A stretch of DNA of 64,000 bases from Rickettsia typhi. Lineage in GTDB: Bacteria; Pseudomonadota; Alphaproteobacteria; Rickettsiales; Deianiraeaceae. Below are positions 1,718 to 55,066 of this stretch, one piece after another. The stretch lies in contig CAMAVJ010000004.1 in NCBI GenBank assembly GCA_945861725.1, forward strand, positions 30,721 to 94,720, written 5' to 3'. Every line of letters starts with the position of its first letter. The stretch's first letter is position 1. The notes below the pieces were generated by a model, which had not been told where the DNA came from, ran no database searches, and saw only the letters and a program-made list of their open reading frames with translations. The translations under genes and the position numbers were made by a program.

Positions 1718-4700
1718 TAAATTAACCTTTGAAAAATTGCCTCCGATGTAAACGGCAAAATTGGTGCAATTGCGGTTGTAAAATCCAGAATTACAGTGTA
1801 AAGAGTATTATATGCTGAATCCTTATCTTCATCTTTTTTAGCTTTCCAAAAGCGTTCTTTATTTCGACGAATATACCAATTATTCAGTACATCAATAAAA
1901 TTTTCAATCAATTTACACGCGGTTTGAGTATTATACGAATCCATTTCGTGTTTAAAATCCCGCAGAAATTCGTGCAGCTTTGAAAGAATATAAATATCCA
2001 TCGTGTTGCTGGAATTGTAGCTTTTTATACCAATGATTTCATCGGCATTGGCATACATTGCAAAGAAATTATATGAATTCCAAATTGGCTTAATGATTAA
2101 ACGCAAAATTTCAGCAATTCCTTGTGAGGTTTTTGGAATGAATAAATCTCCACCGTTAACAACGGGCGAAGAAACGACGAAATAACGCATAGCGTCCGAA
2201 CCTATTGTATCAAAAACCTCCAAAGGATCTGGGTAATTTCGCAAGCGTTTTGAAAGCTTTTGCCCGTTTTCGTCTAAAATTACACCGTGGCAAATGCAGT
2301 TTTTGAACGGTTCGCGACCAAAAAGTGCCGTCCCAAGCACCATTAATGTATAAAACCAACCACGAGTCTGTGCCGTGTATTCGACAATGAAATCGGCAGG
2401 GAAGTTTGATGGGCAAGGAAGTTTTGTTTCCGCCGTTGCAACAAAATTTTCAGGGTTTTTCTTAAAGCGTTCGTCCGCAAATGGGAAATGAACGGAAGCA
2501 AATGGCATTGAGCCCGATTCAAACCAACAGTCTAGGACATCTTCGACTCTTTTGATTCGGCAGTTAATTTGAATGCTGTCATCACGCAAATTATATCTTT
2601 TAAACTCATTTTGAAATGATGAGAGGGTTGTGTCGCTATTTGGTTTTTGTGATACATATTGTGATATAGCTTTCTCTATTATATCAAGAATTTCATCATA
2701 ATTGTTTTCGCTGCAAAACAATGAATTGCCGTATTCTTCATAAATATGCACTATCCCTTTCTTTTTTAGCTCTACTACAACTTGCGACATTACAAAGTAC
2801 GGAAGCGCGACTGGTATGATTTTCTCCACGCACTCCAAATTGTCAATAAACGGGCGGTGTAAATCTTTGACTTCCACCCCAAAGAATTTTTCCATTTCCG
2901 CAATTGAACCAAATACATATTTTGCGCCACTGATTGACTTCCAAACCGGAACAGGGCAACCCCAGAAACGATTGCGAGAAATTGACCAATCTCGTGCATT
3001 TTCCAGCCATTTTCCAAAAATTCCGTCCTTAACATGGTTTGGTACCCAGTTGATGTTTTTGTTATTTTCAACCATTTCGTCTTTGAAGTCGGTGACTCTA
3101 ACATACCACGAAGGCATTGCTTTGTAAATTAGCGGAGTATCCGTTCGCCAGCAGTGTGGATAATTATGAATGTATTGCTCGGTTTTAAACCAAGAGCCCT
3201 GCTTTTTTAGGAATTTAATAATGTCGTCGTTGCAATCAAAAACTTGACGCCCAACTAGCGAAAGAATTCCAGTATCCAGCGTAAAATTTACTCTTTCATT
3301 ACCAGATCTCTCGTAAATTTTCTTTCCTTTATTCGCAAATCCAAGTTTTTCAAGCACTTTATGAGATTGAAGATTGTCTTCGCCAGCGTATGCTGAAATT
3401 TCATTTATACCCGATACTTCGATAAGTTTTTTCCCGATTTCAACTGCGTATCCGCGTCCCCAAAATTCTTTGTGAAGAGTAAACCCAATCTGCTTTTCTT
3501 CGGAATTTAGAGTGATGTTATCAATTCCTGCAAGTCCAATAAATGAATTGGTGGATTGTTCGAATACCATTAACCGTGAGTGATCAAATTTTGCTTTTAG
3601 AGCAACATAAAGTGCAATTTCTGCGTGAATTTCTTGGTCGCTTAAAATTTGTTTGCCGTAAAACTTACGAACTTCGGAATCTTGGTAAAGCTTTTGTATT
3701 AATGGAAGATCTTCATTTGTTATTTCCTTTGTATAAAGACGATCTGTCTGAATATTGAAATTTTTTTGTGCGATTTTCTGCGAATTTTGGTCAATATCCC
3801 AAATTTCTGCGGTATACTTTCCCTTCTCATCAACTGGACAAACAGTTTGAACGCCAATTTTCTTACAAAGTTCATGGTCGTCCTCACCAAAACCAGGGGC
3901 AATGTGCACAATTCCAGTTCCATCTTCAGTGGTAACGAAGTCTCCGTGAACAACTTTAAACGCATTTGTGTGATTGGAGAAATAAGGGAAAAGTGGTTGA
4001 TATGATGCACCAATTAGTTCAGAGCCTTTGAACTCTCCCATAATTTCCGCTTCCTTAAAATTCTTTGCAATTAAATTTTTTGCTATAATAATTTTTTCAT
4101 CATTATGTATAACAACACAATATTCGACCGCAGAATTTATGGCAATCATAAGGTTTGCGGGAAGCGTCCACGGCGTTGTCGTCCATACAAGAAGTTTTGC
4201 ACCTGCATATTTGCCGGATGTTACTGCAAACTTTACCGTTACGGTTTTGGATGTCTTTTCGCGATAGGAATTATCCATTCTTGTTTCAAAGTTTGAAAGT
4301 GGAGTCTCCGCCTTCCAAGAATATGGCATAACTCGGTAATCTTCGTAAATTAAACCCTTGTTGTGTAGTTGTTTAAACGCCCAAATCACAGATTCCATAT
4401 ACGATAAATCCATCGTTTTGTAATCATTTTCAAAGTTGACCCATCTTCCCGCTTTTTGAATATAATGTTCCCAATCGGCGGCGTATTTCATCACAGATGT
4501 TCGACATTGCTCATTGAAATGTTCAATTCCGTACTTGGTGATATCAACCCTTCCTTGAATTCCAAGTTGTTTTTCAACTTCCATTTCGGCAGGCAGACCG
4601 TGGCAATCCCAGCCGAAACGGCGTTCTGTTTTTTTGCCATTCATTGTTTGATACCGTGCATAGATATCCTTGATGAACGATGTTAAAAGATGACCATAGT

Positions 4701-4866
4701 GCGGCAAACCGTTTGCGAAGGGAGGACCATCGTAGAATATAAATTCGCCATCGTTTGTTTCTTCAACTGATCGTTCAAAAATTTTATTGTCTTCCCAAAA
4801 TTTGGCGATTTTCTTTTCAATTTCCGGAAATGTTTCGTTTTCTAGTGGTTGGTATTGTTTTTTCAT
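1717..4866 (-). CDS. ileS: Isoleucyl-tRNA synthetase, type 2 (eukaryote-like), with an inserted GNAT domain, a second insertion and no C-terminal domain
   Basis: 1049 aa. It has the HIGH motif PHYGH, editing-domain motifs TTTPWTLPAN and GIVHIAPGFGEDD, HNYPHCWRTDTPLIYKA, DVLDCWFESGSMPFA, and the KMSKS motif KLSKRLRNYPDP (type-2/eukaryotic form). See findings for the insertions and the truncation. Confidence 0.93.
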   Translation of the reverse strand: MKKQYQPLENETFPEIEKKIAKFWEDNKIFERSVEETNDGEFIFYDGPPFANGLPHYGHLLTSFIKDIYARYQTMNGKKTERRFGWDCHGLPAEMEVEKQLGIQGRVDITKYGIEHFNEQCRTSVMKYAADWEHYIQKAGRWVNFENDYKTMDLSYMESVIWAFKQLHNKGLIYEDYRVMPYSWKAETPLSNFETRMDNSYREKTSKTVTVKFAVTSGKYAGAKLLVWTTTPWTLPANLMIAINSAVEYCVVIHNDEKIIIAKNLIAKNFKEAEIMGEFKGSELIGASYQPLFPYFSNHTNAFKVVHGDFVTTEDGTGIVHIAPGFGEDDHELCKKIGVQTVCPVDEKGKYTAEIWDIDQNSQKIAQKNFNIQTDRLYTKEITNEDLPLIQKLYQDSEVRKFYGKQILSDQEIHAEIALYVALKAKFDHSRLMVFEQSTNSFIGLAGIDNITLNSEEKQIGFTLHKEFWGRGYAVEIGKKLIEVSGINEISAYAGEDNLQSHKVLEKLGFANKGKKIYERSGNERVNFTLDTGILSLVGRQVFDCNDDIIKFLKKQGSWFKTEQYIHNYPHCWRTDTPLIYKAMPSWYVRVTDFKDEMVENNKNINWVPNHVKDGIFGKWLENARDWSISRNRFWGCPVPVWKSISGAKYVFGSIAEMEKFFGVEVKDLHRPFIDNLECVEKIIPVALPYFVMSQVVVELKKKGIVHIYEEYGNSLFCSENNYDEILDIIEKAISQYVSQKPNSDTTLSSFQNEFKRYNLRDDSIQINCRIKRVEDVLDCWFESGSMPFASVHFPFADERFKKNPENFVATAETKLPCPSNFPADFIVEYTAQTRGWFYTLMVLGTALFGREPFKNCICHGVILDENGQKLSKRLRNYPDPLEVFDTIGSDAMRYFVVSSPVVNGGDLFIPKTSQGIAEILRLIIKPIWNSYNFFAMYANADEIIGIKSYNSSNTMDIYILSKLHEFLRDFKHEMDSYNTQTACKLIENFIDVLNNWYIRRNKERFWKAKKDEDKDSAYNTLYTVILDFTTAIAPILPFTSEAIFQRLI

Positions 4867-5369
4867 ATATTTTTCATTAAATATAAATTCATTTCATCAT
4901 CAACGGTTGTTGTTTCACCGTATTTTAAATTTTTTCCACAATATGCCACGCCATGCCCATCAAATTGATATCCAAGTTTGAGATACAACTTTAAGGCGTT
5001 GGAATAGTCTGCTGTTAAGCCGACGCCTAATCCAATTATTTTGGAATTTAATGTTTCTTTCGCATATTTTTCACACTCTTGAATCAATTGTGTTCCAATT
5101 CCGCAATTTTGATGCAATGGCAAAACATTCAAATCTGATATCTCTGGAATATTGTTTGTTGAAAAATATTCGTACTTGGATTTGTGTAAAAGTGTGCAAT
5201 ATCCCAAAGAAATATCACTTTCAAAGGCAACATAGCATTTTCTCAATCCAATTTCTTGCTCTTGAAGATATTTCTGAAATAATTCCACAGGTTTATTCCA
5301 GCCAATATTTCGAAAAGCATTGCTGACAACCTCGCGATCTTCAATTAACAAAGATTTCAATGTCAACAT
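4863..5369 (-). CDS. GNAT family N-acetyltransferase (free-standing)
   Basis: 168 aa. The acetyl-CoA motif A-like segment is NVLPLHQNCGIGTQLIQECEKYAKE, followed by ALKLYLKLGYQ. The stop overlaps the ileS start (ATGA) and the start overlaps the fabF stop (TAATG). Confidence 0.75.
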   Translation of the reverse strand: MLTLKSLLIEDREVVSNAFRNIGWNKPVELFQKYLQEQEIGLRKCYVAFESDISLGYCTLLHKSKYEYFSTNNIPEISDLNVLPLHQNCGIGTQLIQECEKYAKETLNSKIIGLGVGLTADYSNALKLYLKLGYQFDGHGVAYCGKNLKYGETTTVDDEMNLYLMKNI

Positions 5370-6649
5370 TATCTAACCCGCCCAAAAATCACCGAAGAAT
5401 TTGTTCCACCAAAGCCAAACGAGTTCGAAAGAACTGCTTTAATTCCATCAATGTGTTTTGATTTCAACGGAACGAGGTCGAAGCCTTCCGTTCCATCTTC
5501 AATATCCTCAAGGTTAAGCGTTGGTGGAATATCACCAGTATTCATCGCCATAATTGAATAAATTGCTTCAATTGCACCCGCCGCTCCAAGACAGTGCCCG
5601 ATCGCTGATTTCGTTGAAGACATTACAATGTTTTTTTGCTCTGCACCAATCACTTCACGCACAGCGTTGAGTTCGGCCATATCTCCAAGTGGAGTTGATG
5701 TTCCATGCGCATTAATATATCCAATATCTTTGATATCGATTCCAGCGTTTTTTATTGCCATTCTCATTGCAAGCTTTGCACCAAAACCTTCAGGGTGCGG
5801 TGCCGTTATGTGATAAGCATCGCCAGAGGCTCCTCCACCATAAACTTCGCAAAGAATTTTTGCACCGCGTTTTTTTGCGTGTTCATATTCTTCAAGAATT
5901 AAGATCCCCGCACCTTCTCCCATAACAAATCCATCACGAGCTTTATCCCAAGGACGCGATGCCCTGCGTGGTTCATCAGGAAATGACCGCGACAAAGCCT
6001 TTGCGTTGGCAAAGCCAGCCATTCCAAGTTCGCATATTGCGGATTCCGCTCCTCCAACGATCATAACGTCGGCGTCTCCCGCTTTAATTATATGCGATGC
6101 ATGATATATGGCATGTCCTCCAGTTGCACATGCGGTTGTGATTGCACAGTTCGGTCCATTAAAGCCGTATTTCATTGAAACATAACCAGACGCAAGGTTA
6201 ATAATTGAAGATGGAATGAAAAATGGCGAAATAACCTTGGCCGATTTTTCAAACATTTTTTTTGCATTGGATTCAATTGTATAAAGACCTCCAATTCCAG
6301 AACCAATTATTACACCAGTTCTTGCCCGCTCCTCTTCGGTTTCAGGCTTCCAATTTGCTTGTTCAACGGCCTCCTGTGTGGCAACGATGGAATAGCCCAT
6401 AAATTTATCCATTTTTTTGATATCCTTTGCATCGACAAAATCCTCAATATTAAGTATAAAACCTGCTTCGTTTGGTGTTTGATTCGGCGTCTTAATTTCA
6501 CCTGCAATCTTTACTGGAATGTTTGATGTATCAAAAGATTCAATTTTTGAAATACCAGAAACGCCATTGATAATGTTTTCCCAATTTTGCTTCAGATTTA
6601 GCCCAACGGATGTTACAACACCCATTCCTGTTACGACGATGCGTCTCAT
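5369..6649 (-). CDS. fabF: 3-oxoacyl-ACP synthase II
   Basis: 426 aa. It starts RIVVTGMGVVTSVG, has the active-site context ITTACATGGHAI, then INAHGTSTPLGD and SNSFGFGGTNSSVIF. Confidence 0.93.
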   Translation of the reverse strand: MRRIVVTGMGVVTSVGLNLKQNWENIINGVSGISKIESFDTSNIPVKIAGEIKTPNQTPNEAGFILNIEDFVDAKDIKKMDKFMGYSIVATQEAVEQANWKPETEEERARTGVIIGSGIGGLYTIESNAKKMFEKSAKVISPFFIPSSIINLASGYVSMKYGFNGPNCAITTACATGGHAIYHASHIIKAGDADVMIVGGAESAICELGMAGFANAKALSRSFPDEPRRASRPWDKARDGFVMGEGAGILILEEYEHAKKRGAKILCEVYGGGASGDAYHITAPHPEGFGAKLAMRMAIKNAGIDIKDIGYINAHGTSTPLGDMAELNAVREVIGAEQKNIVMSSTKSAIGHCLGAAGAIEAIYSIMAMNTGDIPPTLNLEDIEDGTEGFDLVPLKSKHIDGIKAVLSNSFGFGGTNSSVIFGRVR

Positions 6650-6687
6650 AGATTTTTTAAAAAATTACTGCGATACCATTCCAATGA

Positions 6688-7563
6688 TTATTCTAATGGT
6701 TCAAGTAAATAAACTATATAATCCTTTTCTGGAATTTCAATCTTTTTTTCAAATTTGAAAATTGTATACGATAACTTGTCGCAAGAATAACTTATACCCT
6801 TGATGAGGGGAATGGCAATGTATTTATCTTTAAAAGTGTAAATTAAGTAACCAACCATTGCACCAGAAAGCTCCCACTTCTCTTTTACATCTTCAATAAT
6901 TGCATAACCTTTTACCTCTTTGATGGAAATATTTTTATTTTCTATATCGTTTATCATTGATACAATATCTGAACCTGTGGAACCCTTATTCTCACCATAG
7001 AATCCTAAAAGACCGTGTGCAGAAAGAATACCTCTTTTCTCTCTAATGGCAAACTTTTGTGAATCTTCTTCGGCTTTAATGCTGATAAATGTTGCAGCGT
7101 TTGCATAAAATGAAATACACTGTTCAAATTTGGCAAGATTTTCATCGTATGCAAAGAATTTTGAATATTCTTGGGAAAGTTTACCATAAATATCTTCCAA
7201 TGATTTTCTTTTCTGTTCTGCATTTTCAACTGGTGCATTTTCAGCACACATAGCACCGCTTATAACGTCTGTAACTTGTTTTTTTACAGCACCAATGCCT
7301 TCAAGCTCCTTAATGATATCTTCACATTTGGAAGCTTCATTGAATTTTTTGTTGATGACTTCCTTAACGGCATCATATTCGTAAACATTTCGTAAACTTG
7401 CGTCGTCCTTAATGCAACTTGTAATATTTTCAGCAACATTTTTTTCAATATTTGTAACGATATTCATAACACTGGAGGGGCTGCCTTCCGGAAGAGTGGA
7501 AATTTCTTCAGCAAATGAGTTTGTTGATAACACAAGTATTGCTACAATAGTTTGGATAATCAT
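6688..7563 (-). CDS. Secreted protein of unknown function
   Basis: I chose the start at internal Met (MIIQTIVAILVLSTNSFA/EE) because it gives a clean signal peptide and sits 1 nt after the upstream stop. I recognise no family. Confidence 0.5.
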   Translation of the reverse strand: MIIQTIVAILVLSTNSFAEEISTLPEGSPSSVMNIVTNIEKNVAENITSCIKDDASLRNVYEYDAVKEVINKKFNEASKCEDIIKELEGIGAVKKQVTDVISGAMCAENAPVENAEQKRKSLEDIYGKLSQEYSKFFAYDENLAKFEQCISFYANAATFISIKAEEDSQKFAIREKRGILSAHGLLGFYGENKGSTGSDIVSMINDIENKNISIKEVKGYAIIEDVKEKWELSGAMVGYLIYTFKDKYIAIPLIKGISYSCDKLSYTIFKFEKKIEIPEKDYIVYLLEPLE

Positions 7564-7564
7564 T

Positions 7565-9268
7565 TTATTTTTTAACAAGTTCATTGTGGGCAGCTCCGGA
7601 TGGAATCATTGGCATAACATGTTCGTTATCGGAAACAATACAGTTAAATACCACGGCACCATCGTAGGCGATTGCCTCGTTAATTTTTTCTTCAAGTTTA
7701 TCGACCTGAGTGCATGTCATTCCTTTAATTCCAAAAGATTCCGCAAGTTTTTCAAAATCTGGGAGTGAGTCCGTATAGGATTGGCTATAGCGATTTTCAT
7801 AAAACAAATCCTGCCATTGCTTTACCATTCCCATATAAGAATTATTAATTATGAATAATTTAATTGGAAGGCGATACTGGCATATTGTGGAAAGTTCCTG
7901 AATATTCATTAAAATGGATGCGTCTCCGCTAATACAAATAACGACTTCATCAGGATGTGCAACTTGAGCACCAACGGCGGCAGGAAGACCATATCCCATA
8001 GTTCCAAGACCTCCAGATGTTAACCAATGGCGTGGTTTTTCAAATTCGAAATATTGTGCTGCCCACATTTGATGCTGCCCAACATCCGTTGTAACAATTG
8101 GGTTAAAATGTTTTGTCAATTTGTTGATTGTTGAAATTGCATGCTGAGGAAGAATGGCATTGTTTGATTGCTGTATGTATGCAAAGGAGTTTTCTGACCG
8201 CCAATTCTGGATTTTTTCACACCATGTATCAATATTTTGTGGTTTTGCATTTTGCAAATTCCATTCATCCAAAAGTGCTTCCGCAACTTCTTTTGCATCC
8301 CCAAGAAGTTTGATATCAATTTTGATTATTTTGTTAATTGAAACATCATCGATATCAACGTGGATTTTTTTGGAATTTGGAGAAAATTTACGTGTATCAC
8401 CTGTAATTCTATCATCGAAACGAGAGCCAATTGCAATAATCAAATCCGCTTCATACATTGCAAGATTTGCTTCAATTGAACCATGCATTCCAAGCATTCG
8501 AAGGTTGCTTGGGTGGCTTGCCGGAATGGAATCAAGTCCCATAAGGGTGCAAGTAAACGGAAACCCTGTTTTGTTGATAAGCTCAAGTAATGGTTTGCTT
8601 GCATTTGCGTTAATAACCCCACCACCAATATAAAATACTGGTTTTTTTGCTTGTTTCATTAACTCAATTGCACTTTGAATTGCAGAATAATCAATAACAG
8701 AATTTTGACATTTTTTGGCAATAATATTTCGTGGTCCATCATCAAGTAAGCCTGTAAATTCTTGGTTTTGGATGTCCTTTGGAATATCAACTAACACGGG
8801 GCCAGGTTTTTTAGATTTTGCAATCAAAAATGCTTCCTTTAAAATACGAGGAATGTCATTAACATTTGTCACTAAATAGTTGTGCTTAGTGCAGGAGCGA
8901 GTCAATCCAACAATGTCGGCTTCTTGAAAGGCATCAGTTCCAATTAATGAAAGGGCAACCTGTCCTGTTATACAAACAATTGGAATGGCATCCATAAAGG
9001 CGTCCGTTAATGCGGTGATGGTATTTGTTGCACCAGGACCTGAAGTCGCAAACAAAACGCCAACCTTACCAGACGAGCGTGAATACCCTTCGGCAGCGTG
9101 ACCAGCGGCCTGCTCATGACGAGTCAAGTAGTGCCTAATGCTTCCATTGCGAAACAGTGCGTCGTATATTGGTAAAATGGCACCTCCTGGATAGCCAAAA
9201 ATTTCCGTAACATTAAGTTCTTCGTTTAGAACCTTTATAATAATATCAGCACCGGTGAGCATAACCAA
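7565..9268 (-). CDS. ilvB: Acetolactate synthase large (catalytic) subunit, ThDP-dependent
   Basis: 567 aa. Motifs are [44 protein letters not shown], and the ThDP motif [30 protein letters not shown]. No small subunit gene is adjacent. Confidence 0.88.
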
Positions 9269-19274: not shown

Positions 19275-19303
19275 TTGACATTTTAAAAATATATATTTGA
19301 AAT
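19275..19303 (+). promoter_or_regulatory. Promoter candidate for the fibre locus
   Basis: TTGACA-N17-TGAAAT, 23 nt upstream of the subunit 1 ATG, in a 170-nt AT-rich gap. Confidence 0.45.
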
Positions 19304-19325
19304 CCGTTAATTAATTAAATTTTTT

Positions 19326-19925
19326 ATGTTTGAAAATAAACAAGTAAAAATCGCAATGAATATTGCATTTATGGTTTCCGTTGGTGGTGTTGCAGCAATT
19401 TTACACAATGCACCAGTAAGTGCTGAAACATATACTCCCGGTGCTGGAGCTTATGTGCCAACTGACTACACTGGCACAAATGCTGGGAATCCAATTAAAG
19501 CTATTTCTGGTGGCGTAGCAAAGGCACAAATTATGAAGCAGATTACATCGGCAACAGCTGGAACTTTGGATTTTGGTAAAGTTGTGCCAACTTCGGCACT
19601 TGGCACCATCGTTATCGCTGCAGATGGCTCAATTACAAACTCTGGTGGTGCTCGTTATATTCCAAACTCTGGTGCACATGTTGCACAACTGACATTTTCC
19701 GGTGAACCAAATCAAAAAATCGAAATTACTACTGCAGCTTCGGCAACTATTGCCAATGGCGTCAATACAATGACCATTGACTTCCTTTACCCAGCCGTTC
19801 CAAGTGCAATTGGTGCAGATGGTAATGCTGCTATGAGTTATGGTGGAACTCTTAATGTTGGGGCGAACCAAGCTCAGGGAATTTATTCTGGAACATATGA
19901 CATCTTTGTAACTTATGTTTCATAA
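19326..19925 (+). CDS. Secreted fibre/pilin-like subunit 1 (DUF4402-like)
   Basis: 199 aa with a signal peptide (..HNAPVSA/ETY) and no Cys. The core is LDFGKVVP..GTIVIAADGSITNSGGARY..AHVAQLTFSGEPNQKIEIT..MTIDF..GGTLNVGANQAQGIYSGTYDIFVTY. It is paralogous to the next two genes. Confidence 0.7.
   Translation: MFENKQVKIAMNIAFMVSVGGVAAILHNAPVSAETYTPGAGAYVPTDYTGTNAGNPIKAISGGVAKAQIMKQITSATAGTLDFGKVVPTSALGTIVIAADGSITNSGGARYIPNSGAHVAQLTFSGEPNQKIEITTAASATIANGVNTMTIDFLYPAVPSAIGADGNAAMSYGGTLNVGANQAQGIYSGTYDIFVTYVS
19522..19592 (+). repeat. 71-nt block identical between subunit genes 1 and 2 (second copy at 20252..20322)
   Basis: Base-by-base comparison of the printed lines: aggcacaaattatgaagcagattacatcggcaacagctggaactttggattttggtaaagttgtgccaact appears in both. 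Confidence 0.9.
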
Positions 19926-19989
19926 ATGGTTTTGGCTTTTTAAGCTAATGGCATATTAACTATATACAATTAATTAATTTTTATTTTTT

Positions 19990-20652
19990 ATGTTTAAAGA
20001 GAGGAGTAAACTTAAAATCGCAATGAATATTGCGTTCATGGTCTCAGCAGCGGGTGTTGCGACAATCGTACACAATGCACCAGCAAGTGCTGAAACATAC
20101 ACTGCACCTTCTTCGACGGGAAACTATACAGTTGGCGCTGACAAGGGTGATTATGTTGGATCGTCAACGACATATGGAACTTTAGACGTACTACATCTAT
20201 TTCCATTAACAACGCAAAGTGATGCCAACAGAAAAATTACTGGTACAGCACAGGCACAAATTATGAAGCAGATTACATCGGCAACAGCTGGAACTTTGGA
20301 TTTTGGTAAAGTTGTGCCAACTGTCACAGCGGGAACTGTTGTTGTAAATGCCAATGGTTCAATTACAAACTCTGGTGGAGCTCGTTATATTCCCAACTCT
20401 GGTGCACACGTTGCAACGCTATCATTCAGCGGGGAACCAAACCAAGGAATTTTAATTGATACAGCACCATCGGCAACACTTGCAAATGGCGCAAATACAA
20501 TGACGGTCAACTTCCTTTATCCAACACTGCCAACAACAATTGGTGCCGCAGGAACGGCAACAATGAACTACGGTGGAACTCTTAATGTTGGAGCAAACCA
20601 AGCAGCTGGTATTTACACAGGTACATATGACATCTATGTAACTTATGTTTAG
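19990..20652 (+). CDS. Secreted fibre/pilin-like subunit 2 (DUF4402-like)
   Basis: 220 aa. It has the same signal peptide and core as subunit 1 but a longer variable N-terminal region. It shares 71 identical nt with gene 1 and 117 identical nt with gene 3. Confidence 0.7.
   Translation: MFKERSKLKIAMNIAFMVSAAGVATIVHNAPASAETYTAPSSTGNYTVGADKGDYVGSSTTYGTLDVLHLFPLTTQSDANRKITGTAQAQIMKQITSATAGTLDFGKVVPTVTAGTVVVNANGSITNSGGARYIPNSGAHVATLSFSGEPNQGILIDTAPSATLANGANTMTVNFLYPTLPTTIGAAGTATMNYGGTLNVGANQAAGIYTGTYDIYVTYV
20493..20609 (+). repeat. 117-nt block identical between subunit genes 2 and 3 (second copy at 21027..21143)
   Basis: Base-by-base comparison: the run from aaatacaatgacggtcaacttcc to accaagcagctgg is identical, and the remaining 3' ends are near-identical. 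Confidence 0.9.
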
Positions 20653-20655
20653 CAG

Positions 20656-21186
20656 ATGGTCAATGCCAAATTTACACCTTTAAAAACCTCTTTTGCGGTT
20701 TTACTAAGGATGCTACTGGTATACACCACATTCAACCTTTCCCATACATTGCATTTCAATGCAAATGCAATTGAGGGAACGGTTGGCGCACAAGTTATGC
20801 AACAAATTGCATCAACTTCCGCTGGTAATATGGAATTTGGAAAAGTTGTTCCAACGGCAACAATTGGTACTGTAACAATTTCTCCAACTGGTGATGTTAC
20901 AAACGCAGGTGGGGCTCGTTATATTCCAAACTCTGGTGCACATATTGCAACTCTGACATTCTCAGGTCAGCCAAATCAAAACATTAACATTGAAACACCA
21001 ACTTCAACAACCATTGCCAATGGAGAAAATACAATGACGGTCAACTTCCTTTATCCAACACTGCCAACAACAATTGGTGCCGCAGGAACGGCAACAATGA
21101 ACTACGGTGGAACTCTTAATGTTGGAGCAAACCAAGCAGCTGGCGTTTACACGGGTACATATGACATCTATGTAACTTATGCTTAA
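20656..21186 (+). CDS. Secreted fibre/pilin-like subunit 3 (DUF4402-like, short N-terminus)
   Basis: 176 aa. It has a different, less canonical signal region (..HFNANA/IEG) and the same core ending GGTLNVGANQAAGVYTGTYDIYVTYA. Confidence 0.65.
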   Translation: MVNAKFTPLKTSFAVLLRMLLVYTTFNLSHTLHFNANAIEGTVGAQVMQQIASTSAGNMEFGKVVPTATIGTVTISPTGDVTNAGGARYIPNSGAHIATLTFSGQPNQNINIETPTSTTIANGENTMTVNFLYPTLPTTIGAAGTATMNYGGTLNVGANQAAGVYTGTYDIYVTYA

Positions 21187-21211
21187 TTAAATTTAACCTT
21201 TTTCATTTTTT

Positions 21212-22072
21212 ATGATACTAAAAAGAGCCGTCGCTTTAACAATTACTACCACTACTATCGCTTTATTATTTGCATCATCAGCATTTGCTAGGCTTTCATT
21301 GACACCGTTACGCGTCGAACTTAACACCACTAGTAAAATACAATCTGTATTACTTATGAATGAAACAGCAGATGTAACAACATATCGTATAGGTTTTCGA
21401 TACCAAACTATGACGCCAACTGGTGAAATTAAACTTGCAACAGAAGAAGAACATAAACTTATGCAACCAATCGAACAAATGGTTATGTTTTCTCCAAAGC
21501 AGGTGACGCTTCAACCAAAGCAAACTCAAACTGTGAAATTCACATTTAGGAAAATCCCAACTGCAACATTAAGCGAATATGCTGCTTATATTGTTTTTCA
21601 AGAACTTGATGACAGTCCAATAATTCCACAACTTTCAGAACAACCGGATGCAGGAAATGTTGCAATTAAAGTAAAACCTTTGTTCAAAATATCTATTCCA
21701 ATTTTTATTTCAGACGAAACTTCAACAAGTCAGAAATCAGCAGAAATTAATAATATGAAAATTGACAAGGATTTGAATGTCATAATGTTTGACATCAACA
21801 ATGTTGGACAATACTCAATGACTGGAAGAATTGTTGCGAAATTTTTCAAGGGCAAAAAAATGCTTGGTAAATTTGAACAAACAAATGTTTCAATTCCAAA
21901 CCCTTTAAAAATGCGTAAAATTCTTTTACAATACGATGAAACGGCCTTTAAGGATGATGATATTACTTCAATTGAGGCAACTTACTTACCCCCAGTTGGA
22001 GCAAGAGAATACAGCATCGCCAAAAAAATATTGGAATTGACACCGCGTACAACGCTAGATTCAGATAAATAG
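21212..22072 (+). CDS. PapD-like periplasmic chaperone (putative)
   Basis: 286 aa with signal peptide ..SSAFA/RLSLTPLRVEL. The mature N-terminus has the P.R motif. FSPKQVTLQPKQTQTVKFTFRK...YAAYIVFQEL parallels PapD ATPPVQRLEPGAKSMVRL...LFYFNLREIP. Confidence 0.6.
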   Translation: MILKRAVALTITTTTIALLFASSAFARLSLTPLRVELNTTSKIQSVLLMNETADVTTYRIGFRYQTMTPTGEIKLATEEEHKLMQPIEQMVMFSPKQVTLQPKQTQTVKFTFRKIPTATLSEYAAYIVFQELDDSPIIPQLSEQPDAGNVAIKVKPLFKISIPIFISDETSTSQKSAEINNMKIDKDLNVIMFDINNVGQYSMTGRIVAKFFKGKKMLGKFEQTNVSIPNPLKMRKILLQYDETAFKDDDITSIEATYLPPVGAREYSIAKKILELTPRTTLDSDK

Positions 22073-22157
22073 ATGATGGCGATAATTATGCTAACCAATG
22101 TTCCACTTCATGTGTTTAATATCAAAATTATTTCGCCAATTGGTTCAAATAACCATT

Positions 22158-25043
22158 ATGGCGATCCATCTTATGTGCTTTGCAAGTACCATTTGGCGTT
22201 CAATATGCTTTGCAGCGGAATTACAAAAAGAGCAGACACAGGAGCAACGTCCAAATTTGCCTCAAGTTTCATCACAAACTAAAGATTTACCACAAACGGA
22301 AGTCCCTCAAGTTGTTGATTCTTTGGCAACAAATTTTACAACACCAGAAACACCTACAACTTTAAATACCCTACATCAAGTTCCTGATATTGAAGAGGCT
22401 AAAATGGCGGCAACGCAAATGGTTGTTAGTAGTGAAACGCAGAAAAAACTTCCGTATATCTCAAAACCAACGGAACCTTCAAATTACGAACCATATTTAA
22501 CATCATTCAACCTTGGAAGTATTACCATTGCCGATGATTTTATCATATACGGAAGTACAATTCAGCGGGATAAATATTATATCCCACTTTCATTTTTCGC
22601 AAAATATACGCAAATTCCCCTTGAAGAAAAAGGAGATCTTCTTGTTGGGTGGTTTTTAAAGGAAAATAATAAAATTGAGATCAATACCAAAACTGGTGTT
22701 GTCAAAATTGGGAATGCAACCTACCAGTTTACAGCTCAAGATGCAGTAATTCTTTATACCGAACTCCTAGTTTCAATCGAAATGTTGGCTCAACTCTTTC
22801 CAATGGAAATGAAGTTTGACCTTTCTCAACAAGTTTTAAATGTTGAAACCAAAACACCATTCCCAATTGAACAAGCACTTGCAAGGCAAGAGGCTCTTGG
22901 AAATATTAATAAAGATAAAAACCCCGATGACGAAGAACTCAAAAAAGCCAAACTCGAAGTACAGGAATACCAACAATTTTCAATGCCAAATATTGATATG
23001 ACATACAGTAATGCAATTAATAGCCAGACTTTCAAAATGAATCAAAATCTTTCATTTACATCAACAAGTCACTTGCTAAAATCTATATTAAATGTTACAG
23101 GGAGTGTTGTTGGAAATTCAGATCAGTTCAATTTGAACTCAATGAAGGCTTCACTTCGAAGAAATGATTCCATTTCTCACCCATTTGAACACTACCTTCA
23201 CCCAAAGCAATACTGGGTTGGCGATATTGCCACAACGCCAGCAAATTTGATTTCAAGTGCAACAACGGGCATTGGGGCATCAGTTTCCAATATTCCAGCA
23301 GGTTGGAAAATTGACTTTAATAATTTGCAAATCACTGGTTATGCAATTCCAAATTGGTCAGTTGAAATTTATCTCAACAATAACCTTCTTAATTTTTCAA
23401 CAGTTGATTTAACGGGGTTTTACCTTTTTTCAGAAATTCCGCTCAGTGCTGGTCTTAACACGGTGAAGTTGGTGTTTTATGGTCCATTTGGGCAATCTCG
23501 CGAGGTGATTCAAAAAGTTAATCTTTCTTCGTCATTATTACAAAAAGGAAAAATTGGGTACGAGTTTAGTACAGTTAAAGAACGAACATCCATCATTCCA
23601 ACTGCAAGCTCAATACCAAAGGCGGATGATCAAACTTACGATACTCAACGATACTTCGGAAATATTCGCTACGGAATTGGTAATGAGACATCCCTTGCCA
23701 TTGGAATGACATCATATATGAAAAACTTTACTGGCATTGCGGCAAATCAAGCTGAACGCCAGAACTACCTTTCGTCATCAATAACAACGTCGCTTTTTGG
23801 GATAATAGTCAACACAGATTTTGCTTATCATCTGAATTCACATGAAGGTGCAGCAAAATTTAGTTTAAACGCGCCGGTTTTTAAGGAATCCAATTTGTTC
23901 GTAAGCTCGCAAATCTTTACGGAAAAGTTTATTAGCGAAACAAGACCTCAAGCAAATGAAGCTGCACAAAAATCATTAAATGAAATTCGTATAAAAAATG
24001 GAATAAAACTTTTTGGGAAATTTGTCGTAGGAACATATTCCCTCAAGGTAAACACGCTTAATTCTGGAAACGCAAATTATACACTCGATGCACAAAATTC
24101 AATCACATTCATTAAATCCCTCTCCCTTGCAAATAGCCTACAAACAAGTGTTAACCAAAATGGCAACCAAGTTGTAAAGTCCACAACAGGAAGTGCGAAC
24201 TTGACTTTTAAGTCGGAAAAAGGCTTTCTTTTACGTGGAACGGTAAATTATACTCCTCTTTTTGCACAAACCTTCTTCACAACATCGTCATTTAGTGCCA
24301 ACTATAATCGTGGTTTATTTGGCACAACCAGCACTTATAATATGAATCTGGTTACAAACCAAGGTACTTACATGATCGGCCTCAATGTTAATAGTAAATA
24401 TATTACGACAAGTTTTCAATTAGGCACGGATAAATCTATTAGTGCGAATATTAATATCAATTTTAACAAAAGCGTGATATTTGATGGTATTAAGCCAAAA
24501 ATAAGTCAATCTGGTGCTGCGAGTGGGGGAATTATTGCTGTTAGTGCATTTATGGATGCAAATAATAATGGTAAATGGGATTTTGACGAAGTACCAGCAA
24601 AAGATGTCGCAATCAAGACTTCGGGCAATTCAAAAAAAGAACTCACGAATGCAAAAGGTCAGCTACTTTTAACGGGACTTCCATCCGATTCCGCTTTCCT
24701 TTTTGATGCCGATACTGGAATGATGCCCGACATATCAGTTCAGCCTGCACAAAGTGTGAAAAGAAAAATCATTCTTAAAGCGGGAGCTCCTCACAAAATT
24801 CTTGTTCCAATTGTAAAAATTATTGATATTGAAGGAACGCTTGTTGTTCAAATGAACGATGAGAAAATTCCCGTCTCCAATGCAACGATTCAGTTAATCG
24901 ACAAAAGCAATAAAATCATTGATACTACAACGACAACACCAGACGGTTATTATATTTTTAGCAGAGTCGTTCAAGGAACTTACAAGGTTCGAGCTTCCAA
25001 AGAAACAATTGAAAAATATAAAAAGTATTTGCTCAATAAATGA
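22158..25043 (+). CDS. Outer-membrane usher-like protein with P/Q/T-rich linker and C-terminal Ig-like (SdrD-B-like / CarboxypepD_reg-like) domains
   Basis: The ORF is open from 22098. I prefer Met21 (MAIHLMCFASTIWRSICFAA/ELQ) as a signal peptide. Residues 411-490 (ITGYAIPNWSVEIYLNNNLL..GFYLFSEIPLSAGLNTVKLVFYGPFGQSREV..LLQKGKIGYEF) fit the fimbrial usher pattern G.a..a.V.v..Ng..i....v..G.F.i.dl....G.l.v.v...dG......v......ll..G...y. A long Y/S/T/N-rich stretch follows, which I read as likely beta-barrel. The C-terminus has DANNNGKWDFDE and TPDGYYIFSRVVQGTYKV. Confidence 0.6.
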   Translation: MAIHLMCFASTIWRSICFAAELQKEQTQEQRPNLPQVSSQTKDLPQTEVPQVVDSLATNFTTPETPTTLNTLHQVPDIEEAKMAATQMVVSSETQKKLPYISKPTEPSNYEPYLTSFNLGSITIADDFIIYGSTIQRDKYYIPLSFFAKYTQIPLEEKGDLLVGWFLKENNKIEINTKTGVVKIGNATYQFTAQDAVILYTELLVSIEMLAQLFPMEMKFDLSQQVLNVETKTPFPIEQALARQEALGNINKDKNPDDEELKKAKLEVQEYQQFSMPNIDMTYSNAINSQTFKMNQNLSFTSTSHLLKSILNVTGSVVGNSDQFNLNSMKASLRRNDSISHPFEHYLHPKQYWVGDIATTPANLISSATTGIGASVSNIPAGWKIDFNNLQITGYAIPNWSVEIYLNNNLLNFSTVDLTGFYLFSEIPLSAGLNTVKLVFYGPFGQSREVIQKVNLSSSLLQKGKIGYEFSTVKERTSIIPTASSIPKADDQTYDTQRYFGNIRYGIGNETSLAIGMTSYMKNFTGIAANQAERQNYLSSSITTSLFGIIVNTDFAYHLNSHEGAAKFSLNAPVFKESNLFVSSQIFTEKFISETRPQANEAAQKSLNEIRIKNGIKLFGKFVVGTYSLKVNTLNSGNANYTLDAQNSITFIKSLSLANSLQTSVNQNGNQVVKSTTGSANLTFKSEKGFLLRGTVNYTPLFAQTFFTTSSFSANYNRGLFGTTSTYNMNLVTNQGTYMIGLNVNSKYITTSFQLGTDKSISANININFNKSVIFDGIKPKISQSGAASGGIIAVSAFMDANNNGKWDFDEVPAKDVAIKTSGNSKKELTNAKGQLLLTGLPSDSAFLFDADTGMMPDISVQPAQSVKRKIILKAGAPHKILVPIVKIIDIEGTLVVQMNDEKIPVSNATIQLIDKSNKIIDTTTTTPDGYYIFSRVVQGTYKVRASKETIEKYKKYLLNK

Positions 25044-25522
25044 TGAAAGTTTTAAGAAATAATTTTGTGGTAATGTCACTCATCATTTCTTGGCTTTTGA
25101 CTGGATGCCTCTCCGTTGAGCCAAGGATTTTGAAGGTTGAAGATCGTCTTAAACCGCCATACAACTATCTTCTTCTTAAAGAAGTTGGAAATGATACAAC
25201 ATTCGATTATAAATGGAGTAATTACGATGACGGTTATCTAAGAATGGGCGATAAATTCTTGAAAGCTTATGTTCATATTATGAATAGAATGGAATCGCAA
25301 CCGCAGGATTTTATGTTTAACATTTATAAAAACCAAAAAGATGAAATCGTTGCAAGATTCAAGCAAAATGGTGAGGGCATTCAAGCAATTCACGAAAGAA
25401 GTGTGCTGAATGCATTTACAAAGATACTACTTGATGAAACTGAAAGTATTATTGAAACTGGCGATGAATTTTCAGTTGTAAATGATATTACAATCGTAAT
25501 TCCACGAATGGACGACAAGTAA
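25040..25522 (+). CDS. Lipoprotein of unknown function, last gene of the fibre locus
   Basis: 160 aa. The lipobox is WLLTGC. The ATG overlaps the usher-like stop (ATGA). Confidence 0.55.
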   Translation: MMKVLRNNFVVMSLIISWLLTGCLSVEPRILKVEDRLKPPYNYLLLKEVGNDTTFDYKWSNYDDGYLRMGDKFLKAYVHIMNRMESQPQDFMFNIYKNQKDEIVARFKQNGEGIQAIHERSVLNAFTKILLDETESIIETGDEFSVVNDITIVIPRMDDK

Positions 25523-25545
25523 AAAATATTAGCGAATGATGGACG

Positions 25546-25577
25546 GCAAACCCTAGGGATTTTTCCCTAAAGTTTGC
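25546..25577. terminator. Bidirectional hairpin between the fibre locus and groEL
   Basis: GCAAACCCTAGGGA-TTTT-TCCCTAAAGTTTGC. This gives 6+6 bp with an internal mismatch, in a 68-nt convergent gap. Confidence 0.5.
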
Positions 25578-25590
25578 TAATGGGGAAATT

Positions 25591-27572
<1,982 letters not shown>

Positions 27573-40587: not shown

Positions 40588-42240
40588 CTATGTGACTTGG
40601 TTAGTGATTGGTGGTTTTCTTGCGGCGTTTACTGCTGATGCCTTTATCGAGTTCGCATTAACTATTGTCATAGCCAGCCGATCAGCTGGCTTTGCGTATC
40701 CTGCCTTCCTCTCTCGATATGCCTCATTAGTTTCACCCACGCCCTTCATCGTACTCTTCTCACCGCCTTGACGTATCTCACTTGGTTTTTCTGCTGCTGC
40801 TGTGAATTTTTGCACCCTCCTATCGACCTTCCCATCGACCTTCCTCTTCAGAACTTCTGTTACATCTTCTGGAGAATGTTTAGTAGTAGCACTGTAAATG
40901 TACTTTGTTACAGCATAAGCGTTATCTGCTTTATTTAATTCGTCCTTCAGCACTAATGTCTTATTTTTGTCCTCTAAACTCTGCATGTCGCCATCATATT
41001 GTGTAACGCTGCTCTTGCTTTGATGTTGCTGCATCTTGCCTTTCATTGTGTCAACTTTTGATTGAGCGGTTTGGAATGGAAGTTTATTAAGGACAAATGC
41101 CGTGAATTTATCCATCTTTTTTTCTCCAAAATTGGCGATTTGCTTAAATGTCGTTCCAAAAGGCTTGTTATATGCCAAATCAACAAACACTGAAGGTATG
41201 GCACATGCAATTGCCACAGTACCCATAACTACCGTTCTTAGTATAACAAAAGGTAACGTAATCAATTTAAATAATCCCTCAAGAATGTCTCGCAGCATAT
41301 CCTTCCCTGCTCTCTTTGCCAACCCTGGAAAATCCTCAATATCGTTACCAAGTCTATGAAAAAAAGCTTTTACTGCACCAAATGGTTCTTTTTGCAGTGC
41401 CTCCTCAACTGCACTGCGGGCATGCAGAATCTTATTCCTTTGATCGACTTTAGCCTGAGCATATGCCAGTGTATTCTTATATTTATCACTCAATTCGATA
41501 TTTAATGCCTTGCGTAAATGTTTCTCTGTTTTAGTACTTTTTAAGTTGTTTAGGGCTTGCCACTCTATTGTATTATTAGTCATCGCTTTCTCATTAGCAT
41601 TCATTGCTGCTGTTAGTGCGTCCGCATACTGTTTAGGCACGTTGCTTGTTGATGAAATCTGTTGTATTGGAGGAGCAGGATTGGATGATTGTGCCGCTTC
41701 ATGTGTTATGCTGTTTAGTGGTAAGCTCAAGAGGAGAGCACGCAATAAAGTATCATCAGCCTCAGGACGGGAGAATATAGCCCTGAGTTTAGCACGTTCC
41801 TCATCGCTTAATGTCGCATCTACTGCGTTGCTCGATGCGTTTGTAGCTTTAAGATCAGCAGCCTGTTTAAGTGAGTAATAATCTAGGAGTTCTTGTTGTT
41901 GCTTTATTGCTTCTAGTGAGAATGTGCTCGCATTTTTATTGATTGCTGTAGCATGGTTATCATCTGGTGCTTGATTATTTAATAATGCTTTTTTTTGGTT
42001 TGCGACTGGTGTGGTAAGTTTTCCGCTCGCAATCTTAATATTTTGTTCCGTTGTAAGTGTGTGACCGTTTGTGCCTTTGTCCATTCGCTTTTGCACATCA
42101 ACAGTTGTATTCCCGCCGATTGGCGGTAAAAGTCTGCGTCGTAGTGTACCTTGGTGGTTTCTCTTGATGTCATCATTAGGTGTTTGCAATCGCTGTGTAA
42201 GTCGACTATGTTCCTGTACTTCTGCTTCACTTCGTACCAT
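40588..42240 (-). CDS. Orphan 550-aa protein, GC-enriched, with a central hydrophobic hairpin; candidate secreted or membrane-inserted effector
   Basis: It has no signal peptide, and both ends are long, hydrophilic and rich in Q, N, K and A. The single hydrophobic block ILEGLFKLITLPFVILRTVVMGTVAIACAIPSVFVDLAY spans residues 319-356. GC is 28/60 in line 41581-41640, against 18/60 in line 39901-39960. Confidence 0.55.
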   Translation of the reverse strand: MVRSEAEVQEHSRLTQRLQTPNDDIKRNHQGTLRRRLLPPIGGNTTVDVQKRMDKGTNGHTLTTEQNIKIASGKLTTPVANQKKALLNNQAPDDNHATAINKNASTFSLEAIKQQQELLDYYSLKQAADLKATNASSNAVDATLSDEERAKLRAIFSRPEADDTLLRALLLSLPLNSITHEAAQSSNPAPPIQQISSTSNVPKQYADALTAAMNANEKAMTNNTIEWQALNNLKSTKTEKHLRKALNIELSDKYKNTLAYAQAKVDQRNKILHARSAVEEALQKEPFGAVKAFFHRLGNDIEDFPGLAKRAGKDMLRDILEGLFKLITLPFVILRTVVMGTVAIACAIPSVFVDLAYNKPFGTTFKQIANFGEKKMDKFTAFVLNKLPFQTAQSKVDTMKGKMQQHQSKSSVTQYDGDMQSLEDKNKTLVLKDELNKADNAYAVTKYIYSATTKHSPEDVTEVLKRKVDGKVDRRVQKFTAAAEKPSEIRQGGEKSTMKGVGETNEAYRERKAGYAKPADRLAMTIVNANSIKASAVNAARKPPITNQVT

Positions 42241-42258
42241 CCTTCAAAATAAAAAATT

Positions 42259-54913: not shown

Positions 54914-55066
54914 ATCACATAAATTATAGTTAATGCTAATGCAGACCCTTCAGATAAAAAAAATAAAATTCAAGGATTTTTTTAAAAAAACAAAAAAAAC
55001 TTGATTTTGTATATTATATGAAATCTTATATCATTATATGTACGCTTATTTGCCTTTACTTATTTT

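Follow-up and report, generated by a model that had tools for sequence, protein, structure and literature searches.

Can a gene cluster that standard protein family models hardly see encode a chaperone-usher fibre? The question is raised by six genes at 19326-25522 of a 64,000-nt stretch of contig CAMAVJ010000004.1, from an uncultured Rickettsiales-like bacterium (the window, by which we mean that whole stretch at its full length), for which an earlier note, drawn from the DNA sequence alone, had proposed a chaperone-usher-like locus built on DUF4402-like subunits. No bacterial adhesion organelles are better understood than chaperone-usher (CU) pili, which serve as targets for drugs and vaccines, and the catalogue of these systems has been compiled with the Usher, PapD and pilin models of Pfam. 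We believe, with a probability of roughly 0.8, that the six genes form a complete, deeply divergent CU fibre-assembly system that would use DUF4402 subunits and the donor-strand mechanism, and whose nearest known branch is the archaic one, although it lies outside that branch.

Results and Discussion

A divergent usher homologue

The large protein of the cluster (961-aa numbering is used here) begins with a leader and a disordered Gln/Thr/Pro-rich linker that extends to residue ~96, and its N-terminal domain occupies residues 110-231. A barrel of ~23-24 strands then spans 278-769 and is broken at 370-455 by an insert that resembles a plug; behind it come two beta-sandwich domains at the C-terminus (~779-946), the last of them of the CarboxypepD_reg/SdrD_B type. 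In the AlphaFold2 (AF2) model, which was built on 13 homologues and has a predicted local distance difference test (pLDDT) score of 66, DSSP assigned 5-6 long strands (278-358), the short-strand insert (370-455) and 18 long strands (466-769), the strand count being approximate; the N-terminal domain was predicted at a pLDDT of ~80-89. When this model was compared with the PDB by Foldseek, the best 18 fold matches were all PapC/FimD ushers (E from 1.4e-18 to 6e-9), and the next fold class was that of the TonB-dependent receptors, from 3e-6. A TonB-dependent receptor was rejected as the identity of the large protein, these fold matches falling 9 or more orders of magnitude short of those to ushers.

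Profile comparisons pointed in the same direction. A 50-sequence profile drawn from an exhaustive profile search matched four Csu-type ushers at 98.6% in hhalign (P = 1.3e-15) over 525 columns that take in the plug, the remaining barrel and the two C-terminal domains; with three classical ushers of E. coli it gave 92% (P = 6.5e-7), while reversed and shuffled controls gave P>0.05. In this alignment, the segment …GYAIPNWSVEIYLNNN…FYGPFGQSREV falls on the plug region of CsuD. A previous profile of 13 sequences was weaker (94.5% for archaic and 1.5% for classical ushers) and had matched the SdrD B domain only, via the C-terminal domain; a single-sequence PDB search with the large protein returned nothing relevant. 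Considering that a comparison of archaic with classical ushers gives P = 1.2e-31, the values obtained here make this usher family an outlier to both. Pfam detects only the last ~50 residues of the large protein (SdrD_B/CarboxypepD_reg), and its Usher model (PF00577) gave no match to the window protein; among the homologues, a distant one reached 25.8 bits against a cutoff of 27.1 bits, and 3/50 members matched weakly at E≤0.01. In 13 of the 50 relatives the N-terminal domain matches Cu_amine_oxidN1, and in 13/50 there is a C-terminal SPOR domain, SPOR modules (which bind peptidoglycan) or TPR modules having been added in many. On the strength of the barrel model with its plug, the PapC/FimD fold matches and the 98.6% match to archaic ushers, the large protein is an usher homologue, as the earlier note had supposed from one segment of it.

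A putative pilus chaperone

The 286-aa protein encoded upstream of the usher has a predicted signal peptide (…SSAFA, cleaved before RLSLTP), and its AF2 model consists of two beta-sandwich domains with strands at 33-167 and 177-275. The top Foldseek matches were mostly CU chaperones, namely EcpB, CupB2, CsuC, CfaA, Caf1M, FimC and PapD (E from 7e-9 to 1e-5, with TM-scores to chaperones of 0.3-0.45), and WxLIP structures were interleaved among them. The best Pfam matches of the protein itself were fn3_5 (3e-4) and WxLIP_PGBD (6e-4), both below cutoff, with no PapD_N match, and 21 of the 55 syntenic family members match PapD_N (best E 5.5e-8). When the 55 sequences were combined into a family profile, hhalign gave 97.4% (P = 1.5e-11) with chaperones of the CsuC type and 93.2% with the classical FimC type, with clean controls. 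The PDB sequence matches of this profile were led by WxLIP (E 0.007), followed by PapD (0.1), and a single-sequence PDB search gave nothing relevant.

The conserved residues are those expected from a chaperone at several positions. Across the CU chaperone superfamily a single residue is invariant (PMC4654587), namely Pro59 of CsuC in strand D1; Pro95 of the window protein aligns with it and is invariant in 55/55 family members. Asn50 is likewise invariant in all 55. The G1-like strand VAIKVKPLFKISIPIF carries alternating hydrophobic residues (V150, I152, V154, F158, I160, I162 and I164) and its S-I-P-x-F end is conserved, and alternating hydrophobics before S-I-P-x-F are what a donor strand would show. 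Thus, the description of this protein as PapD-like is upheld by its two beta-sandwich domains, by fold matches that are mostly CU chaperones, by the PapD_N matches of 21/55 relatives and by the invariant Pro and, to judge from these alignments, it is a pilus-chaperone homologue.

The WxLIP matches call for comment. WxLIP and other Ig (immunoglobulin) domains of the PapD-like clan (fn3_5, Cep192, MSP) have weak Pfam or PDB matches to the N-terminal domain of the 286-aa protein, but WxLIP belongs to Gram-positive cell-wall complexes and, to our knowledge, none of these proteins is encoded beside an usher and pilin-like subunits. The resemblance reflects a shared PapD-like Ig fold and not a shared system, and an identification of the 286-aa protein as WxLIP or fn3_5 was rejected on account of the synteny, the PapD_N matches in relatives and the invariant CU proline.

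DUF4402 proteins as candidate pilins

The three small proteins encoded at the start of the cluster belong to DUF4402 (PF14352; E ~1e-22): they score 79-83 bits against a cutoff of 25.2 bits and cover positions 2-129 of the 129 of the model. They are Cys-free, as had been noted, and their mature length was also given about right (150-190 aa), the range found being slightly wider (~138-186 aa). Their genes are tandem duplicates, with a DNA identity of 72-80% over 300 nt; in this 300-nt repeat (D1) the subunit 2 copy is 80% identical to that of gene 1, and a repeat in the signal-peptide region (D2) is 83% identical. The DUF4402 model also matches 63 of 65 short subunits from syntenic loci (permissive threshold of E≤10; best E 2.9e-29), and 54 of the 65 lack Cys.

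The Pfam model of the archaic pilins, SCPU (PF05229), found no match in the window subunits at E≤1 and weakly matched 1/65 relatives (E 0.09). By profile alignment, the 65 DUF4402 sequences matched SCPU/Csu pilins, represented by an alignment of 11 pilins from Csu-type operons on plasmids, at 96.3% (hhalign, P = 1.7e-9) over 132 columns that run from the N-terminal strand to the last residue; the controls, one reversed and five shuffled, gave P values of 0.16-0.73. The match to classical pilins was 22.6% and comprised the C-terminal 38 columns only. Among PDB sequences, the best match of the 65-sequence profile was CsuA/B, which was not significant (E 0.16), and a single-sequence search with one subunit yielded nothing relevant. 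The profile alignment indicates that DUF4402 is a remote relative of the SCPU/Csu archaic pilins, and its members would be divergent pilins of that kind.

Two regions of the alignment resemble the parts of a donor-strand polymer. At the N-terminus there is an alternating strand in which the fraction of hydrophobic residues across the 65 sequences is 0.73-1.00 at columns 39, 43, 45, 47, 51 and 53 and 0.08-0.27 on the polar side, at 40, 42, 44, 46, 49, 50 and 52; column 41 is a conserved Gly and column 48 is also hydrophobic (0.66). This strand aligns to the experimentally defined donor strand of CsuA/B, with which residues 35-53 of subunit 3 are paired by hhalign. The C-terminus carries a motif resembling an F strand (G163 in 64/65, Y165 in 50/65, G167 in 58/65, then Y169, V171 and V173, and Y175 in 61/65), and in 42 of the 65 subunits the chain ends at Y175. 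CsuA/B likewise ends at an anchored C-terminal aromatic residue (PMC4654587).

The three paralogues differ in what precedes the core. In subunit 1, a predicted Sec-type signal peptide (…HNAPVSA, then ETYT, read by eye) is followed by a Gly/Thr/Tyr-rich tail of ~35 aa, a predicted donor strand (…GGVAKAQIMKQITS) and the pilin core; this subunit resembles the lone subunit of the closest relatives, loci L008 and L010. Subunit 2 has the longest tail (~55 aa) ahead of its donor-strand-like segment. As judged from an alignment with relatives and CsuA/B, the Gly/Thr/Tyr-rich tails (35-55 residues) of subunits 1 and 2 are conserved. Subunit 3 has no extra tail, and its predicted donor strand IEGTVGAQVMQQIAS directly follows the leader, as in CsuA/B.

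Related loci in other genomes

A genome scan with one genome per species found 54 loci, the three-part order being recovered with iterated hidden Markov models (HMMs). In nearly all of the ~55 loci known to us, one to four DUF4402 genes are followed by a chaperone-like gene (~250-290 aa) and an usher-like gene (~850-1270 aa), and the order noted in the window recurs in 50+ species. The closest relatives are freshwater metagenome-assembled genomes (MAGs) labelled 'Rickettsiales', with 42-62% identity. Other carriers include many gut and rumen Alphaproteobacteria MAGs, cultured Marinobacter, a tardigrade symbiont of the Hepatincolaceae and a Rickettsiales endosymbiont of a mayfly, as well as a few MAGs labelled Bacteroidales, Chitinophagales and Elusimicrobiota. 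An independent search started from the subunits led to the same triad on two sphingomonad plasmids, of Novosphingobium and Sphingopyxis, where the RefSeq names are 'DUF4402 domain-containing protein', 'molecular chaperone' and 'hypothetical protein' or 'carboxypeptidase regulatory-like domain-containing protein'. In the exhaustive profile search, the usher-like family amounted to 3,568 clusters at 50% identity (E≤1e-30), and most of the top 150 matches run end to end. A word index had returned 13-15 usher and 12 chaperone homologues, and the view that the family is very rare, being a sensitivity artefact, was refuted by the exhaustive search and the genome scan. The system is not peculiar to this genome and belongs to a large family.

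One locus bears on an organism with a published description. In 'Ca. Tardigradibacter bertolanii' (L024; JBEULC010000001.1, 113193-127916), the genes at 1426-8787 form a complete locus with three short and one two-domain DUF4402 genes, a 281-aa chaperone-like protein and a 990-aa usher-like protein. The species description calls this organism 'devoid of flagella or pili' (PMC11724238).

Two further loci have features of their own. L010 (CAMAVG010000037.1) is from a freshwater MAG titled 'Rickettsia typhi' that has a lake-style sample name, and its usher-like protein is only 62% identical to that of the window; the name looks like a taxonomic mislabel. In L003 (Logan contig of SRR23274488, 11000-15957), the usher-like gene is preceded by a giant protein with a type IX secretion system (T9SS) sorting tail and followed by FliG-like (FliG_M/FliG_C), MotA/ExbB-like and MotB/OmpA-like genes, an odd pairing of a CU-like locus with stator- and rotor-like genes.

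The loci differ at their two ends. In most of those outside the clade of the window (L017-L063), a tandem DUF4402-DUF4402 protein of ~300-335 aa is encoded immediately upstream of the chaperone, and its first domain has no donor-strand segment; from this layout of its sequence it is likely to be the tip subunit. No gene for a two-domain, tip-like subunit was found in the window or in the loci of its close relatives. Conversely, the lipoprotein gene that ends the cluster is restricted to the closest Rickettsiales-like clade, where a homologue with 39-59% identity directly follows the usher in close relatives. The lipoprotein has the lipobox LLTG-C, with the predicted cleavage before the Cys, and its gene overlaps that of the usher by 4 nt (ATGATGA, usher stop and lipoprotein start), in line with its description as a coupled terminal gene. 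In an alignment of six sequences the motif G-C-x-S-V-E-P is invariant, and searches of Pfam, NCBIfam and the PDB turned up no relative, even with a profile made from the six. We infer that it is an outer-membrane accessory of the fibre system.

Relation to the known branches

Archaic (sigma) operons of the Csu/CupE/SCPU kind resemble the locus in having several small pilin paralogues, a chaperone, an usher and one more gene after the usher (CsuA/B-A-B-C-D-E in Csu). SCPU pilins have in common with the DUF4402 subunits the L-x-F-G motif, a G-x-Y-x-x-T-x-x-V-T-V-x-aromatic strand at or beside the C-terminus and the alternating N-terminal donor strand; chaperones of the CsuC type share the invariant Pro, the Asn motif and the S-I-P-x-F end of G1; and the archaic ushers align in plug, barrel and both C-terminal domains. 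As far as these alignments reach, the archaic branch (sigma, Csu-type) is the best-matching known branch across all three components, and the system described here lies outside it. Indeed, the differences are several. The Pfam SCPU, Usher and PapD_N models miss the window proteins; the N-domain of archaic ushers is replaced, in 13/50 relatives by the Cu_amine_oxidN1-like domain mentioned above, and the last C-terminal domain is CarboxypepD_reg/SdrD_B-like. In Csu, an adhesin gene follows the usher, whereas in the window a lipoprotein gene does so, and a two-domain subunit, where one exists, is encoded before the chaperone and not after the usher. Csu pilins have no Gly/Thr/Tyr-rich N-terminal tail like that of window subunits 1 and 2, and the Arg89 anchor of the non-classical chaperones is replaced (Tyr126 in the window).

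The likeness to the classical Fim/Pap/Caf1 systems is of another kind. PapC and FimD are the best structural matches of the usher model, the N-domain of the chaperone aligns to the FimC type at 93%, with Arg34 of the clade of the window at the position of Arg8, and subunit 3 has the penultimate Tyr and the Gly at -14 (read from the sequence) of classical pilins. However, the subunit profile match is weak, the usher match is weaker than that to archaic ushers and Arg8 is not conserved family-wide; PapC_N and PapD_C signatures were not detected. Accordingly, the earlier note was correct about the subunits-chaperone-usher order, but the classical layout that it saw there has its nearest branch in the archaic (sigma, Csu-type) systems and not in the classical ones.

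Proposed mechanism and alternatives

The analysis documents the gene set, its order and conservation, homology of all three component types, usher- and chaperone-like folds, and donor- and acceptor-strand hallmarks. In the mechanism that we propose, the three DUF4402 subunits would be exported by Sec, each as an incomplete Ig-like pilin lacking its last strand, and the G1 strand of the 286-aa chaperone (VAIKVKPLFKISIPIF) would cap the open groove of the subunit in the periplasm (donor-strand complementation). The chaperone-subunit complex would then dock on the 961-aa usher, a gated ~24-strand barrel with a plug, where the next subunit would bring in its own alternating N-terminal strand (…G-x-V/A-x-A-x-I/V…I-x-A/V) and so displace the chaperone strand (donor-strand exchange), and the growing polymer would be threaded through the barrel to the cell surface. 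As no two-domain tip subunit is encoded in the window, the product would probably be a homo- or hetero-polymer of the three short paralogues. We suppose that the cell does make such a polymeric fibre, which would serve attachment to a eukaryotic partner, to particles or to other cells.

Several observations weigh against this interpretation. The AF2 models of the 286-aa protein and the usher are moderate (mean pLDDT 66, predicted TM-score [pTM] 0.45-0.49, TM-scores 0.3-0.5). Moreover, the chaperone and usher of the window fall below the Pfam PapD_N and Usher thresholds. The N-terminal domain of the usher, the part that in known systems (PapC_N) recruits chaperone-subunit complexes, lies outside every hhalign match to archaic or classical ushers. 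Anchoring of the subunit is a further point. Arg89 (CsuC numbering) anchors the C-terminal carboxylate of the subunit and is the most characteristic feature of the non-classical (archaic or alternative) chaperones (PMC4654587); in the equivalent column 42 of the 55 sequences have His, 5 have Tyr, 4 have Arg and 3 have Phe, and the window protein has Tyr126. For the domain-2 partners of this Arg (Tyr196 and Arg174) the alignment gave no equivalent positions. Classical chaperones anchor this carboxylate by a pair of residues, Arg8 and Lys112: window Arg34 aligns with FimC Arg8, but the column is Arg in only 15/55 and it is conserved only in the clade of the window. A Lys or Arg is present at G1 position 155 in 33/55, a position that may or may not correspond to classical Lys112. 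Finally, subunit 3 has an unusual leader and the usher an unusual start, and the proposal that the subunits would be incomplete Ig-like pilins rests on remote homology and sequence patterns.

Among other explanations, the closest to the fibre is that the same machinery makes a thin afimbrial or capsule-like coat of DUF4402 subunits and not a long pilus. Coats have precedents in the F1 capsule of Caf1 and in the Myxococcus spore coat protein U from which the SCPU family takes its name, and DUF4402 is homologous to SCPU; besides, the two-domain tip-like subunit of most other loci is missing from the window and its close relatives, and the single-subunit loci L008 and L010 resemble polyadhesin or capsule systems. 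The characterized SCPU-type systems with the same operon layout, Csu and CupE, nevertheless make thin pili (PMC9452303, PMC10104325), and we consider a coat unlikely. It would in any case be a variant of the fibre explanation and not another mechanism, because coat and fibre would both be donor-strand polymers, which the sequence does not tell apart.

It is very improbable that the resemblance is one of architecture only, that is, that the large protein is an ordinary gated pore of the outer membrane, for transport or secretion, that the 286-aa protein is an unrelated Ig-like protein of the periplasm or a cell-wall binder, like WxLIP or fn3_5 domains, and that the DUF4402 proteins are surface or periplasmic monomers that do not polymerize. 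Such an explanation can call upon the weak fn3_5 and WxLIP_PGBD matches obtained in place of PapD_N and the missing Usher match, upon WxLIP (E 0.007) ranking ahead of PapD (0.1) with the chaperone profile, and upon the TonB-dependent receptors among the fold matches of the usher. Yet ushers fill the first 18 of these ranks, 9-12 orders of magnitude better than the TonB receptors, and the profile homology of the usher covers 525 columns, with the plug and the two C-terminal domains among them; the CU-specific proline is kept and 21/55 chaperone relatives match PapD_N; and three component families, strictly syntenic, independently point to Csu. Equally, we see hardly any chance that the locus is a decaying remnant without current function in a reduced genome. 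The atypical usher start and subunit 3 leader and the lack of evident Shine-Dalgarno motifs might be taken as signs of decay, but all six reading frames are intact, including one of 2.9 kb, the same genes occur at 39-69% protein identity in several related MAGs with their motifs conserved, and the upstream regions of all six genes are uniformly AT-rich. Pure resemblance and decay are thus both made unlikely by three homologies that lead independently to one known system, by the strict synteny and by open reading frames (ORFs) that are intact and conserved, and a divergent CU fibre-assembly system is left as the preferred explanation.

Significance

In the literature searched, DUF4402 (PF14352) was not mentioned, in agreement with the view of the earlier note that the locus is uncharacterized as a named pilus system, and 'chaperone-usher' occurred together with 'Rickettsiales' in one paper only, in a single mention. 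A preprint on aquatic Rickettsiales lineages, the presumed source of the freshwater MAGs, reports type IV pili only (10.1101/2023.01.31.526412). The locus does not represent a new principle; it is an unrecognized, widespread variant of a known one, with mechanistic differences. An usher-like family of ~3,500 clusters at 50% identity that is invisible to standard Pfam models is an annotation gap, and organisms have been described as pilus-free despite a full locus, 'Ca. Tardigradibacter bertolanii' being an example. For Rickettsiales-like and other host- or partner-associated Alphaproteobacteria, the locus offers a concrete candidate for an attachment structure. Furthermore, the replaced carboxylate-anchor residue and the foreign N-domain of the usher amount to a natural experiment on what is essential in the donor-strand mechanism, and cultured carriers (Marinobacter, Novosphingobium and Sphingopyxis) make such questions directly testable.

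We also put forward, tentatively and as something that could well turn out otherwise, that the DUF4402 loci are a separate, deep major branch of CU systems outside the alpha, beta, gamma, kappa, pi and sigma clades. This branch would be set apart by another kind of N-domain for substrate recruitment and a CarboxypepD_reg-type last C-terminal domain (often with a SPOR fusion) in its ushers, and by an anchoring that would use neither the Arg of the non-classical chaperones nor the Arg/Lys pair of the classical ones. It would be widespread in Alphaproteobacteria and would provide an unrecognized attachment organelle in lineages described as pilus-less, such as Rickettsiales-like freshwater bacteria, gut Alphaproteobacteria of the RF32 type and the Hepatincolaceae, which sit on host microvilli.

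Gene layout and genomic setting

The ORF list places six tightly spaced ORFs, all on the same strand, at the coordinates given for them in the earlier note (Table 1), and the motifs quoted there (LSLTPLRVEL, FSPKQVTLQPKQTQTVKF, the GYAIPNWSVEIYLNNN...YGPFGQ segment and the LTGC lipobox) are all present. Gene callers use the ATG at 22158 as the usher start. The intergenic gaps are, in order, 64, 3, 25 and 25 (or 85) nt, and the cluster is flanked by transketolase and groEL/groES, both on the opposite strand. Pfam sees the subunits and the C-terminus of the usher and NCBIfam has no family for any of the six proteins, so that apart from a DUF label the locus is dark to routine annotation.

Table 1. 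Features of the DUF4402 locus (positions are those of the window).
Feature	Position	Strand	Description and basis
Subunit 1	19326-19925	+	199 aa, DUF4402; PF14352 E 1.6e-22
Subunit 2	19990-20652	+	220 aa, DUF4402 paralogue; E 6.5e-22
Subunit 3	20656-21186	+	176 aa, DUF4402 paralogue; E 2.9e-23
Chaperone-like periplasmic protein	21212-22072	+	286 aa; AF2, Foldseek, hhalign
Usher-like outer-membrane protein	22098-25043	+	981 aa, or 961 aa from ATG at 22158; AF2, Foldseek, hhalign
Translationally coupled lipoprotein	25040-25522	+	160 aa (159 aa from 25043); lipobox
GC-containing hairpin, possible bidirectional terminator	25545-25578	.	RNAfold; tentative

Upstream of the cluster there is a TTGACA at 19275-19280, from which the locus had been called promoter-proximal. 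This was not borne out: a consensus scan called no promoter at 19275, and promoter-like sites in the region were no commoner than in shuffled sequence. No Shine-Dalgarno motif could be recognized upstream of any of the six genes, and several of their starts are preceded by a T run (…ttttttATG). At the other end, RNAfold of 25501-25600 gave -20.5 kcal/mol with a nested stem, in the gap where the lipoprotein gene and groEL converge. This hairpin possibly closes the operon as a bidirectional terminator, a tentative assignment because the terminator scan did not call it.

The window recurs letter for letter within a 252-kb metagenomic contig, and the same proteins are also encoded on a 653-kb contig. 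The GC content is ~36% across the window, with no compositional break at the locus. This value, and the freshwater 'Rickettsiales' MAGs as closest relatives, partly bear out the streamlined, host-associated genome that had been suggested, but the window retains genes for LeuA, acetolactate synthase, transketolase and citrate synthase, which speak otherwise. Elsewhere in the window no further copy of a DUF4402, chaperone or usher gene was found, and Rfam and tRNA scans of the window found two tRNAs only, neither of them inside the locus.

Three other genes of the window deserve mention. A 551-aa ORF at 40591-42243 (-) had no Pfam match at E≤1e-5. In a 1058-aa class I aminoacyl-tRNA synthetase (1720-4893, -), the tRNA-synt_1 match is split in two and followed by a C-terminal Anticodon_1, and residues 385-519 make up a complete GNAT acetyltransferase domain (PF13302, E 3e-21), an unusual insertion. 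Lastly, a 682-aa protein encoded at 55022-57067 (+) has a weak TrbL/VirB6 match (PF04610, E 9e-7) and would fit a component of a Rickettsiales-type type IV secretion system.

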